DNA from: a virus
Taxonomy: Duplodnaviria; Caudoviricetes
Reading direction: 5' to 3' (one strand)
Virus record (IMG/VR): IMGVR_UViG_3300025653_000020
Span: 44,872-108,871 of that record
DNA length: 64,000 nt
Shown: one piece after another, positions 16,245 through 21,781 of the stretch
Layout: every line of letters starts with the position of its first letter
Numbering within the stretch: the stretch's first letter is position 1
Program-made: the position numbers and the translations under genes
The notes under the pieces: model-generated
What the model was told of the DNA's origin: nothing
Seen by the model: only the letters and a program-made list of their open reading frames with translations
The model's database searches: none

Positions 16245-16329
16245 CGGGCGGCTGACTTAAGTATAAAGAAACGCCCAGAGATGCCTCTAGAAGGCGCTAC
16301 AATGCCCCTGAAACATTCTCAGGGTGTCT

Positions 16330-16545: not shown

Positions 16546-17445
16546 TTAACTAGAAACAGAGAACTTAGAGTTGTTGAAGTTTGCCATACTGAACACTTCA
16601 CGATTTACCAACTTAATTGACCCCAAGGCATTAGAAAAGACGTAACCTTCGGCATCAATTCGATCATAACCAATGTAAGCAGCAGGACCCAAGTTACGGC
16701 AGAGGAATAGAGCATCTTCTTTGATGGACTTAACGAGTTTCCAGAATTCAATCAGAAGGTGATCACAATCGAAGTCTTTTGCATCGATTTCCTGACCCTC
16801 ACGAATGCACTTGTTGAGTTGCCTTGTGATCTTGATTGCTTCCTTAGGAGTTGCAAAATTCACAAGTTGTGCCATTTGCTTAGCGAAACCAATAACTTCC
16901 TTAAGGTCATGAAACTGGTTGGAATCACTGTGCTGAACGTAGCACTCTGGTTTCAGAAAGTAACACGTTTCAGTGGAAGAAAGGTTATCAACCAAAGGGT
17001 AACATACAGCGTCACGAAGGTCATTTTCTGCGAAGTATTCGGTATGGGGAGCAATAATGATTTGCTGATCGATTACCTCACCAAACTTGTAAGTGATCGT
17101 GTTGGGAGTAAACTCATCGCTATCGCCAAACCCAATAAAATCACCTTGGATGATAGAATCGGTGTGAGGAAGACAATCAAAGCAGCAATGCAGAATAACC
17201 GCAACCTCACCCGAATAGAACTGGTCAATTTCTTCATGAGAGTGTGCAATTCGGATTTTAACCTTGTTAAAAACTGCCTTAGTTCCTACGAAACGAAGAC
17301 CATTGGCGGGGTTAATCCCCCAAACGATTGCAGGTGCTCCGTCAAGTTTGACGGAGAGGTGACCCTCATGGAGCAGACAATCAAGTGCTTTAAGGTCACC
17401 CGAGAGAACCGTATCTTCAGGGTGTTCGAGGTGGAGATTTTGCAT
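16546..17445 (-). CDS. Conserved phage protein with ligase/nucleotidyltransferase-like motifs
   Basis: HLEHPED; SVKLDG (KxDG), IQGD, EGYV, IKLV; start moved to MQNLHL because the listed start lies inside the promoter. Confidence 0.7.
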   Translation of the reverse strand: MQNLHLEHPEDTVLSGDLKALDCLLHEGHLSVKLDGAPAIVWGINPANGLRFVGTKAVFNKVKIRIAHSHEEIDQFYSGEVAVILHCCFDCLPHTDSIIQGDFIGFGDSDEFTPNTITYKFGEVIDQQIIIAPHTEYFAENDLRDAVCYPLVDNLSSTETCYFLKPECYVQHSDSNQFHDLKEVIGFAKQMAQLVNFATPKEAIKITRQLNKCIREGQEIDAKDFDCDHLLIEFWKLVKSIKEDALFLCRNLGPAAYIGYDRIDAEGYVFSNALGSIKLVNREVFSMANFNNSKFSVSS

Positions 17446-17459
17446 TTGAGTGTCAGTGA

Positions 17460-17542
17460 GGTTCCCTTTGTTCGTTACTTCGTAACAATAGTCGATCACG
17501 GTGCCCTTTGGGGGGAATGGTGGGCACTCCCCCGATTGGCAC
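17460..17542 (-). repeat. 83-bp promoter cassette, copy 1 (copy 2 at 18972-19054)
   Basis: About 6 mismatches between copies; last 43 bp identical. Confidence 0.9.
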
Positions 17543-17590
17543 AGGGGGTCGGCCGACCTGAGTATAAAGAACTCAGGGGCACGGTTAGTG

Positions 17591-17908
17591 TCAGCAAACC
17601 AACTCCATGTTCAGGTTATTCACACACTGAACACCGCAATAGTATGCATCCAACCAGTTAGAGAAAAATTCAACAGTTTCAGTAACAGAGTGGCGAGAAT
17701 TCACCTCTTTACGATAAGAAACTGCGAACACATCCACAGTTCCGTTGTCAACGTACTTTGCAGAGTGAGTGATAGCAATGGCGCTATTCTCCTTGAAACG
17801 ATACACTGAACGAGTGTTCAGGTGATGAGCAGTCAACTCACTGCCAAAGTGTTGCTCTGCCTTCCAACCTTGGGAGAAAAGTGACATTTGAGTTGCGTTG
17901 TTTTCCAT
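17591..17908 (-). CDS. Hypothetical early protein
   Basis: ORF downstream of a palindrome promoter. Confidence 0.65.
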   Translation of the reverse strand: MENNATQMSLFSQGWKAEQHFGSELTAHHLNTRSVYRFKENSAIAITHSAKYVDNGTVDVFAVSYRKEVNSRHSVTETVEFFSNWLDAYYCGVQCVNNLNMELVC

Positions 17909-17992
17909 GATCCTATAATTGCACAGATCGCCGCCAATTTCAACCGCTCTTGTGCCACTCTGCCAACTGGTTGCGGCGGCTGACCTGAGTAT

Positions 17993-18018
17993 AAAGAAAG
18001 GGGAGTTAATCCTCCCCT
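17993..18018 (-). terminator. Intrinsic terminator
   Basis: AGGGGAG-GAUUAA-CUCCCCU followed by UUCUUU. Confidence 0.75.
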
Positions 18019-18108
18019 GATGTAGAGTGTTGAGAGTTTATCACCAGCAGTAGAGTTGCCAACTGACTCACTAGGAGTGGTGATCGGGTGTCCTGTGCCC
18101 CTCTCAAC
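17993..18108 (-). ncRNA. Candidate structured small RNA (~115 nt)
   Basis: Own palindrome promoter (-10 at 18115-18120) and terminator; no ATG ORF; nested stems GUUGAGAG/CUCUCAAC and AUCACCA/UGGUGAU. Confidence 0.6.
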
Positions 18109-18181
18109 TTCTATACAATACACGATTTAGGTGCCCTGTGTTGAAATAGTGGACACCTTGCCAACTGTTCGGGCATCCGAC

Positions 18182-18373
18182 TCAGTTAGTGTTACTTTCC
18201 TCCAAAATGTGTGGGTAGTATTCATTAACTTCTTCAGTCAATTCATCATCCGAATACTTATCATAACCTTCCATCAGGTAGTCATAACAAAGGCAGGTCA
18301 TTGTCTTAAGGTCCATGTCATCAATTATTTGCTGGACCATTTGATCTTGGAGGTCTTTGCGGTTCATTGTCAT
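18182..18373 (-). CDS. Hypothetical acidic early protein (63 aa)
   Basis: ORF track; ATGA overlap with the upstream gene. Confidence 0.7.
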   Translation of the reverse strand: MTMNRKDLQDQMVQQIIDDMDLKTMTCLCYDYLMEGYDKYSDDELTEEVNEYYPHILEESNTN

Positions 18374-18687
18374 TTGAGAATGGTACGGTAGTCAATAGAT
18401 TTGATGCACCAACCTGTAGCATCACTAATCCCATCAACTAAATCTTCTTCATTGTCTACCTCCAAGATTTGCCCAATGTATTCTTGAGCAAGTTTTTCTT
18501 CGGTGCAGATTCTATCACTCTCAGACCAGTAATCTTCAGGGTTTGCACCTTCATTAAAGATGTCTTCATCAAGACTACAATCGAACTCAATGTTGGTGAT
18601 TTGAAATTGCATACTCAATTTTCGTTCGGGAATGTCAAAGATTTCACCAGGCATGTCTTGAATCTCTTGCCAAAGTTCATCAAACAT
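18370..18687 (-). CDS. Hypothetical acidic early protein
   Basis: ORF track; ISDATGWCIKSIDY. Confidence 0.7.
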   Translation of the reverse strand: MFDELWQEIQDMPGEIFDIPERKLSMQFQITNIEFDCSLDEDIFNEGANPEDYWSESDRICTEEKLAQEYIGQILEVDNEEDLVDGISDATGWCIKSIDYRTILK

Positions 18688-18971: not shown

Positions 18972-19054
18972 GGTTCCGTTTGTCCGTTACTTTGTAACAA
19001 TAGTCGGTCGAGGTGCCCTTTGGGGGGAATGGTGGGCACTCCCCCGATTGGCAC
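18972..19054 (-). repeat. 83-bp promoter cassette, copy 2
   Basis: Near-identical to 17460-17542. Confidence 0.9.
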
Positions 19055-19225: not shown

Positions 19226-19369
19226 TGGTTTCGTTTGAACTTCAGTCATTATAGGCACGGGGTAGGGCGGTTTCGGGGCAGGAGTGGACAGTCTGCCAAC
19301 TGGCACACGGGCAGCCGACCTGGGTATAAAGAATGGGAGGATATTTCACCTCCCGTTGTTGTCTAGAAC

Positions 19370-21431: not shown

Positions 21432-21460
21432 TTGACTTTTTCGTGCCCTCGTGTTAGAAT
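21432..21460 (+). promoter_or_regulatory. Sigma70-type promoter TTGACT-17-TAGAAT
   Basis: Exact 17-bp spacing; points into the tandem repeat. Confidence 0.75.
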
Positions 21461-21480
21461 GCGGTCTAAAATCACAAGAA

Positions 21481-21745
21481 TCTGAAGGTTTCTGAAGGAT
21501 TTCTAAGGGTATTAGAAGGGATTATCTGAAGGTTTCTGAAGGATTTCTAAGGGTATTAGAAGGGATTATCTGAAGGTTTCTAAAGGGATTATCTGAAGGT
21601 TTCTGAAGGTTTCTAAAGGGATTATCTGAAGGTTTCTAAAGGGATTATCTGAAGGTTTCTGAAGGATTTCTAAGGGTATTAGAAGGGATTATCTGAAGGT
21701 TTCCTAAGGGTATTAGAAGGGATTAAGAAGGATTAATAAGGTATT
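21481..21745. repeat. Tandem array of about 24 10-13-bp AAGG-core units with a 44-bp higher-order period
   Basis: Units TCTGAAGGTT / TCTGAAGGATT / TCTAAGGGTAT / TAGAAGGGATTA / TCTAAAGGGATTA. Confidence 0.92.
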
Positions 21746-21781
21746 AAAAAGATATTAAGAACCATATAAAAGACAAGAAGT

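Follow-up and report, generated by a model that had tools for sequence, protein, structure and literature searches.

An RNA element between the genes of a T4-like cyanophage

The stretch of DNA analysed here—64,000 nucleotides (nt) of IMG/VR virus record IMGVR_UViG_3300025653_000020, in the following called the window—is part of a 108.9-kb viral contig whose nearest relatives are T4-like Synechococcus myoviruses. Around 15–21 kb of the window the genes lie on the minus strand, and among them lies an RNA element of about 80 nt that is likewise read on the minus strand. It is predicted to fold into a three-way junction of a closing stem P1, a small hairpin P2, and a larger domain P3, and an intrinsic-terminator-like hairpin begins 10 nt past its last P1 base (Table 1). 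By comparison of homologous sequences, this element is a new conserved phage RNA family that is absent from Rfam, and which normally appears to form the 5′ end of messages for small proteins. The window copy has a promoter-like site and a terminator of its own, and no open reading frame (ORF)—an arrangement that differs from 74 of 74 other contexts.

A first-pass annotation of this locus, made by a model from the sequence alone, had already described a promoter, a folded RNA, and a terminator. The −10-like hexamer TATTGT was read back from the sequence, the two pairings given for P1 and for the base of P3 have the right coordinates, and the minimum free energy (MFE) fold is the same three-way junction. 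The claim of a clean terminator agrees with a terminator scan, which finds a 7-pair stem followed by TTCTTTATAC. Also, the sequence and the ORF list agree with the statement that there is only a 33-codon TTG frame without a ribosome-binding site: no ATG lies within 18108–17993, and the frames open across the element are this one (18006–18107) and a 96-codon GTG frame (17833–18123), both of which cross the terminator. The "full palindrome" of the promoter, on the other hand, shrinks to an imperfect inverted repeat—GGTGTCC (18157–18151) against GGGCACC—beside CAGTTGGCA.

Table 1. Features of the leader RNA locus in the window (all on the minus strand).
Feature	Position	Strand	Details and basis
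Upstream promoter box	18149–18172	minus	CAGTTGGCA 18167–18159, then GGTGTCCAC 18157–18149; inverted partner GGGCACC 18136–18130
−10-like hexamer TATTGT	18120–18115	minus	read from sequence; inferred start ~18108–18109
Three-way-junction RNA, ~80 nt	18108–18029	minus	MFE fold, covariance model, covariation
P1	18108–18101 GUUGAGAG with 18036–18029 CUCUCAAC	minus	8-bp closing stem
P2, small GGG/CCC hairpin with 9-nt loop	18100–18086	minus	MFE fold
P3 domain	18084–18040	minus	AUCACCA 18084–18078 pairs with UGGUGAU 18046–18040, smaller hairpins enclosed
P3 apical loop CAGUUGGCA, 9 nt	18065–18057	minus	MFE fold
Intrinsic-terminator-like hairpin, 7-pair stem	18018–17999, T-rich tail to 17989	minus	terminator scan; TTCTTTATAC behind stem
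Inter-cassette boundary module copy	17975–18015	minus	repeat family D2: hairpin, TTCTTTATAC, YYARGTCRGCYGMC
Next promoter-like site	17969–17915	minus	CAGTTGGCA 17969–17961, GTGGCAC, TTGAAA, 17-nt spacer, AATTAT
First downstream ORF, 105 aa	17591–17908	minus	matches no Pfam or PHROG family

Base pairing is conserved among homologues

Homologues were fetched by exact patterns taken from the element itself (core, P2, and 3′ half), a covariance model, R1, was trained on 32 distinct copies of the leader RNA, and the alignment for covariation consists of 66 distinct rows fitted to this model. Over the whole structure, standard pairs fill 99.8% of the pair cells, and four base pairs covary. For three P1 pairs, 15–18 rows have both bases exchanged, with switches between G–C and U–A (or A–U), and one P3 pair reads U–A in 37 rows, U–G in 21, and C–G in 7. 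The covariation score is 0.160, a value not attained in any of 500 column shuffles, and slid controls give 0.053 at most. Compensatory differences in P1 and P3 can already be appreciated when the window copy is compared with that of the cultured phage S-SCSM2R alone. The G–U wobble pairs fit a minus-strand transcript only, a strand asymmetry that suggests an element working as RNA.

The folding energy of a single copy is less telling. The element alone yields z = −1.51, with 14 of 200 shuffles folding equally well, and the element together with the terminator z = −2.78. Hence, the single-sequence folding energy of the element is not beyond chance, and the evidence that is beyond chance is the comparative one.

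P2 and the interior of P3 hardly vary across the rows. In the window, the MFE fold has P3 as one long hairpin with a D-arm-like top. This form carries an uncompensated U-to-C change in the stem of 20 distinct rows, and only 95.0% of its cells are paired versus the 99.8% given above. The variation mildly favours an alternative form, in which P3 encloses two small hairpins; the long-hairpin form was neither discarded nor given preference.

A 1-nt indel separates sequence groups (23 of the 66 distinct rows), and the P2 loop bears insertions of 14 nt (L012, L089, and L111), 28 nt (L103 and L115), and 46 nt (L063), so that no reading frame is conserved. The opinion of the first-pass annotation that the locus encodes a structured RNA is thereby borne out, and the locus is not a coding remnant: among the homologues the pairing is kept via compensatory changes—the four covarying pairs over 66 distinct rows—and indels break the frames. 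Inspected by eye, the P2-loop inserts seem to add further helices and to repeat the GGACACC motif.

Three candidate features of the element were rejected. For a pseudoknot between AGGA of the P2 loop and CUCCU of P3, judged by eye, single changes in one or the other partner (L087, L113, L059, L027, and L012) are never compensated. The CUGAUGA of the majority sequence, which looks like a hammerhead core, belongs to P3 as its 3′ strand; at a position where such a core requires A, the window carries G, and Rfam yields no match. Reading frames through the element, finally, are ruled out by the indels among homologues.

A single-copy family of uncultured cyanophages and one isolate

In a distant blastn search of the region against 50,697 phage records, S-SCSM2R was the one isolate matched, at 87.9% identity across 98 nt; the match sits in an unannotated gap, and its flanks do not align. 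The element of this phage lies at L001, 2012–2100. In contigs from uncultured viruses, the element is more common. IMG/VR holds the exact 23-nt core in 22 contigs; the P2 pattern occurs in 33 contigs—32 real ones and a chance match, L032—and the 3′-half pattern in 79 metagenome contigs. Model R1 gives exactly one match per source in 100 of 100 phage or metagenome sources, which correspond to 66 distinct sequences with scores of 49.6–114.5 bits. Hereby, untruncated copies without P2 insertions score 96–114.5 bits, insertion-bearing or truncated copies 49.6–105.3 bits, and the window copy 101.2 bits. The element is likewise single copy in G000, G001, G002, and the complete 244-kb genome of S-SCSM2R; the record of the window is among these four, and no second copy was found in it. 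The carriers form a clade of uncultured T4-like Synechococcus phages plus the isolate S-SCSM2R.

Phage S-SCSM1 has no match to model R1. At the corresponding place (L002, 1401–1513), a homologous promoter is followed by a minimal 24-nt hairpin of P1 and P2 (1460–1483) without P3, which precedes a Kyano_Gp96-family gene. This mini-hairpin either represents the ancestral state of the leader or has arisen from it by reduction.

Among the 4227 families of Rfam 15, there is no gathering-score match in the 64-kb window or in 13 homologous loci. When matches up to E = 10 are admitted for 17850–18250, just three weak chance matches of 15.5–16.5 bits appear, all on the plus strand, and up to E = 5 one weak match appears in L031. 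ARAGORN finds no tRNA or tmRNA gene in the window. A 31-letter pattern of the element has no match among 185,579 prokaryote species, each represented by one genome, and a 20-letter apical pattern has one match in a Pseudomonadales metagenome-assembled genome (L125), an ordinary sequence without a model match that was dismissed as chance. In the main-text literature, no paper describing a cyanophage leader or non-coding RNA of such kind was found by topic, and four sequence strings of the element are absent from the searchable literature.

The surroundings of the element are far more variable than the element itself. ORFs within 3.5 kb of it were clustered for the window and 31 other loci, that is, 32 in total. 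A DUF6267 gene occurs within this distance in 11 of the 32 loci, and for the same loci the element is 78–93% identical to that of the window versus 64–70% for the nearby DUF6267 gene. Besides these two, little is alignable within 6 kb, and the gene order around the element varies from contig to contig. In the window, the DUF6267 protein (16549–17445, minus strand; Pfam E = 1.6e-71) bears a VKLDG motif, which we take to resemble the KxDG motif of nucleotidyl-transferases and ligases.

The RNA is anchored to the start of the transcript

The 68 distinct upstream contexts fall into two groups. Group A (57 contexts) has an inverted-repeat box made up of CAGTTGG... and, behind it, GTCCAC or GGCAC. 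TG and a TAnnnT hexamer come about 25–28 nt after this box, and P1 begins exactly 6 nt after the hexamer, a spacing kept in 57 of 57 cases. In most of these contexts, the box type of the window (CAGTTGG...GT/GCCAC) is as far from the −10 as in the window, and some of the contexts hold a terminator-like stem-loop between box and −10. In the 11 contexts of group B, a different motif, yTAAAGYGT, precedes P1 by 9 nt. From the fixed P1 spacing in both groups it follows that the RNA begins at or beside the inferred start whichever promoter type is used.

The promoter-like site of the window combines the conserved −10-like hexamer with the upstream inverted-repeat box in place of a −35. The promoter call of the first-pass annotation stands as far as the position of the hexamer, which is conserved in homologues; a sigma-70 consensus scan does not return it, and the start is a deduced one. 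It is this conservation that suggests promoter status for the site and a start at about 18108.

Two side observations concern promoter sequences of the region. The exact 9-mer CAGTTGGCA occurs four times on the minus strand (17961–17969, 18057–18065, 18159–18167, and 19294–19302), three times in promoter upstream boxes and once in the apical loop of the leader RNA; with at most one mismatch, 19 occurrences are found versus 12.7 expected, which is overall at chance level. Furthermore, 17460–17542 and 18972–19054 are two promoter-region copies of 83 nt with 93% identity, which hold an inverted repeat (GTGCCC...GGGCAC) together with the −10-like hexamer TATTGT and which ORF callers read as spurious "MPIGGVPTIPPKGH" N-termini.

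In other phages the RNA leads into an ORF

Downstream contexts were counted only if at least 120 nt of sequence lie behind the element, which leaves 75 including the window. In all 74 others, an ATG ORF starts 24–78 nt past the element or inside an intervening module, called M2. Since an ORF follows in every one of these, the element is normally a portable 5′ leader. The linker between leader and ORF is usually 20–40 nt long, CA-rich, and without a Shine–Dalgarno sequence. [quoted passage not shown]

Some loci carry extra modules between leader and ORF. M2 is a second structured module, found at L031 (9105–9151), L001 (2099–2145), and 11 other loci. Its outer stem, GAGAGG/CCUCUC, surrounds an inner hairpin; three pairs of the module covary across 13 sequences, and the module holds a Shine–Dalgarno-like GAGG and an AUG, the short frame of which is not conserved. 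M3, seen in L031, L039, L040, L052, L066, L069, and L118, is a long imperfect hairpin closed by CUGGG/CCCAG, followed by a U-run of 7–9 nt—a terminator-like element within the 5′ untranslated region (UTR) of a phrog_1987 gene.

The window copy stands alone

A hairpin and T-run directly behind the element occur in the window alone (1 of 75 downstream contexts), and the exact 24-nt pattern of the junction between leader and terminator is found in no other IMG/VR contig by a scan from which the window's own record may have been masked. The first-pass annotation had seen in the locus a non-coding RNA cassette, carried like the protein genes. Its first half applies to the window, where the RNA stands alone between promoter-like site and terminator; against its second half, the other 74 contexts place the RNA as the first ~80 nt of an mRNA.

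The terminator of the window is part of a boundary module, which is present in four minus-strand copies within 3.1 kb (16247–16287, 17548–17588, 17975–18015, and 19310–19350), each with the same order of hairpin, TTCTTTATAC, a GC-rich block, and a promoter of the same box family. This organization resembles that of the PeSL (promoter-early stem-loop) elements, by which, according to Arbiol et al. 2010 (PMC2839356) and Comeau et al. 2014 (PMC4122927), ORFan cassettes of T4-type phages are gained, lost, and exchanged. As the terminator belongs to such a repeated PeSL-like module, cassette shuffling has probably removed the ORF of the leader. Relatives that share the 8-bp P1 type of the window keep their ORF: it is of an 86-aa family in L053, L084, and L098 and has 68 aa in L058, which also shares the upstream DUF7326 gene with the window. 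About 12 nt resembling the linkers of these four loci remain before the window terminator, and a relative of the 86-aa ORF sits two genes upstream in the window (18370–18687). The simplest history would probably be a replacement of the leader's ORF by cassette shuffling at the PeSL-like module.

Contigs assembled from RNA libraries bridge the terminator: X5 record 18 covers 17885–18067 with no difference, and X2 record 8 covers 17879–18029 with one. Since such near-identical contigs occur in the RNA libraries of two studies, the arrangement of leader, terminator, and next promoter is real in nature. In 11 RNA runs, at most 0.23 of the sampled words are present. The contigs come from four runs at a depth of 2–5, none of them extends over ~18068–18101, they might stem from DNA carry-over, and neither transcript ends nor strand can be read from them, so that they speak neither for nor against a discrete transcript.

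Behind the terminator, a scan finds a promoter-like site at 17943–17915, which is homologous to the leader's promoter in L012, L089, and L111. It is followed by the 105-aa ORF, which has no relative among the ORFs clustered in the 31 other loci. A 178-nt part of it matches metagenome locus L105 at 72.5% (blastn), where it lies upstream of the element. The start ATG is found ~6 nt behind the −10-like ATTATA/AATTAT, and because of this short distance the mRNA may be leaderless or nearly so. Further away, 21458–21754 consists of dense short tandem and interleaved repeats (family D1), with units such as TCTGAAGG and TCTAAGGG at spacings of 10–44 nt.

Proposed role of the leader

We propose that the element is a cis-acting 5′-terminal domain for protection and factor binding, a reading to which we assign a probability of roughly one half. 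Promoter and leader would form a portable module in which the transcript enters P1 at about +1 or +2, so that the leader makes up the 5′ end of the mRNA, followed by the CA-rich linker and then by whichever small gene of the hyperplastic region comes next. A closed transcript 5′ end is a known requirement for shielding from 5′-end-dependent RNases, and the base-paired terminus might protect the message from such decay. The invariant loops might dock a specific factor acting on the message they are linked to, while the unstructured linker would keep the start codon accessible. The conserved block might double as a homology patch for cassette shuffling. In the window, recombination at the PeSL-like terminator/promoter module would have removed or replaced the linked ORF, and the promoter may now yield a terminated RNA of ~110 nt or a read-through leader for the next gene.

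Several points weigh against this proposal. A plain 5′ stabilizer needs only a stem, which leaves more than 50 invariant positions and the single copy unexplained. The invariance itself—above all that of the 3′ half—is partly built in, because the homologues were retrieved by exact patterns and aligned by fitting to the model. The interior of P3 admits two mutually exclusive folds, with mean energies of −18.0 and −17.7 kcal/mol over 61 sequences, and the docking factor is a hypothetical one. The window promoter escapes the sigma-70 consensus scan, and both the start and the end of the transcript are deduced from sequence. Finally, the window copy scores like the ORF-linked copies (101 vs 96–114 bits), which would also fit an ORF-independent function in trans.

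Such a function is the most serious competitor, and a possible one, although we would not bet on it: a stand-alone small RNA acting in trans as decoy or sponge for a host or phage RNA-binding protein, a defence sensor, or the RNA polymerase (RNAP), to which the ORFs are incidental and which is released by termination in the window and by 5′ UTR processing elsewhere. It would account for one copy per genome, for the extreme conservation of the loop sequences, for a conservation far above that of the flanking genes, for the irrelevance of the downstream gene with its about ten families, and for an intact window copy that has its own terminator and no linked ORF. It would also suit the two 9-nt loops with a central GG between A's; the apical one presumably resembles a tRNA D-loop. 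Yet, the 74 other contexts lack a terminator and continue into an ORF 24–78 nt later, no processing site is known, a long conserved single-stranded seed is absent, ARAGORN detects no tRNA-like gene, and the partner is hypothetical. A rather unlikely relative of this idea has the element as an autonomous trans RNA gene, a decoy for protein or RNAP with two D-loop-like GG loops, which spread among marine cyanomyoviruses by riding on the 5′ ends of cassette genes and of which the window, with promoter, RNA, and terminator, would show the minimal free-standing form. Since the apical loop repeats the promoter-box 9-mer CAGTTGGCA, the RNA might titrate a factor that reads phage promoters; if true, an entire class of phage promoters would be under feedback by an RNA. 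Control of read-through—antitermination like that of the put RNAs, or an attenuator, which would let transcription pass 18018–17999 into the 105-aa ORF and the DUF6267 gene—appears improbable. The element is promoter-proximal and multi-stemmed, the window terminator lies 10 nt past P1 with genes behind it, M3 places a hairpin and U-run between leader and ORF (e.g., in L031, L039, L040, and L118), the region is full of terminator/promoter modules, and the RNA-library contigs bridge the terminator—the last being a weak hint given possible DNA in the libraries. However, most contexts have no terminator between leader and ORF, between the element and the downstream hairpins there is no alternative pairing that recurs consistently (window and M3 differ), the ORF past the window terminator has its own promoter-like site, and put- or nut-type elements do not require strict +1 anchoring.

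A metabolite- or ion-sensing riboswitch aptamer in the 5′ UTR would be expected to look much like the element, with a P1-closed three-way junction, conserved junction and loop nucleotides, covarying stems, and a 5′ UTR position, and manA and wcaG are other candidate 5′-UTR motifs carried by cyanophages (PMC2864571). We nevertheless deem it very unlikely: an expression platform is not conserved, the linkers are unrelated, unstructured, and without a Shine–Dalgarno sequence to sequester, the about ten unrelated downstream families of unknown function form no coherent regulon, and on the transcribed strand there is no Rfam match even at E up to 10. Even less is to be said for an element that acts on the DNA level alone, as recombination hotspot or protein-binding site conserved via homogenization. 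The genes on either side of it change from phage to phage, as at a shuffling junction, and PeSL elements are proposed as recombination sites in PMC2839356. However, compensatory changes keep stems whose strands are 80 nt apart, and G–U intermediates, such as the 21 rows with U–G at one pair, argue against it. A small protein from the 33-codon TTG or the 96-codon GTG frame is barely worth considering: both frames are open in the window, but ATG and ribosome-binding site are absent, the indel in 23 of the 66 rows and the insertions of 14, 28, and 46 nt break the frames in homologues, and the frames cross the terminator and the repeat module. All in all, a cis-acting leader fits the observed contexts better than the possible roles as decoy, antitoxin mimic, or RNAP-binding RNA, which the first-pass annotation had put forward.

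Marine Synechococcus populations are shaped by T4-like cyanophages, of which few structured RNAs are known; the present RNA is abundant among contigs from marine viruses and metagenomes. Being better conserved than its neighbours, single copy, and fixed to the transcript start, it suggests a specific role in phage gene expression. This function is directly testable, since the cultured isolate S-SCSM2R (host WH7803) carries the element. Also, whether the RNA depends on a linked gene is a question for which the ORF-less copy of the window provides a natural experiment.

Comparison with known systems

The put RNAs of phage HK022 are cis-acting antiterminators behind early promoters, multi-stemmed, ~70–80 nt long, and in no need of a linked ORF. 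Like them, the element is promoter-proximal and multi-stemmed, and the window has a terminator behind it. Unlike them, it is strictly anchored to +1 and, in 74 of 74 other contexts, has an ORF directly behind. 5′-terminal stabilizers, e.g., the ompA leader, place a helix within 0–2 nt of the transcript 5′ end and need nothing but this stem. The constant distance of 6 nt between −10 and P1 (57 of 57 cases) is reminiscent of these, whereas the conservation of a large domain with invariant loops is not. There is also a likeness to the D-arm of tRNAs: in one of the candidate folds, a stem of 4 bp carries the 9-nt loop CAGUUGGCA, and the GG of the P2 loop is flanked by A. On the contrary, the element has neither T-arm nor anticodon loop, and the fold favoured by the variation splits the D-arm-like hairpin. 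Further conceivable parallels would be a likeness of GAUCACC..UCCU to the 16S 3′ end, a GGA hairpin of CsrA type, and NAD capping.

Among structured RNAs of marine metagenomes and T4-like cyanophages, manA (RF01745), wcaG (RF01761), and PhotoRC-II (RF01717) are the nearest in kind, being conserved, located in presumed 5′ UTRs, and almost confined to these two sources (PMC2864571). These are tied to particular gene functions, whereas the element precedes about ten unrelated ORFs and has no covariance-model match to them.

The closest parallel on the level of genome organization is given by the PeSL elements. These lie between small ORFan genes of hyperplastic regions and are proposed sites of modular shuffling. 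They were described in coliphage, Yersinia, and Vibrio phages, and the text of PMC4122927 leaves cyanophages unmentioned; for S-PM2, only sparse PeSL-like features are noted in a 2015 paper (PMC4503421). In the window, modules of terminator hairpin and early-type promoter are repeated between small ORFan genes in four copies, and a stem-loop terminator stands beside a promoter between genes, with 18018–17999 followed by 17943–17915 and the same at the other three copies. In some homologues, moreover, a stem-loop lies between upstream box and −10, and the neighbours vary by phage. PeSLs are multi-copy, about promoter-sized, and without a long transcribed RNA domain, in contrast to the element with its single copy and its covarying leader of 80 nt. 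Hence, the leader RNA itself—single copy per genome, unlike the four-copy boundary module—is not a PeSL. Modular shuffling in the style of PeSLs thus appears to operate in cyanophages too, where the mobile module includes an RNA domain. The window holds a unique free-standing form of a new cyanophage RNA family, probably made by cassette shuffling.

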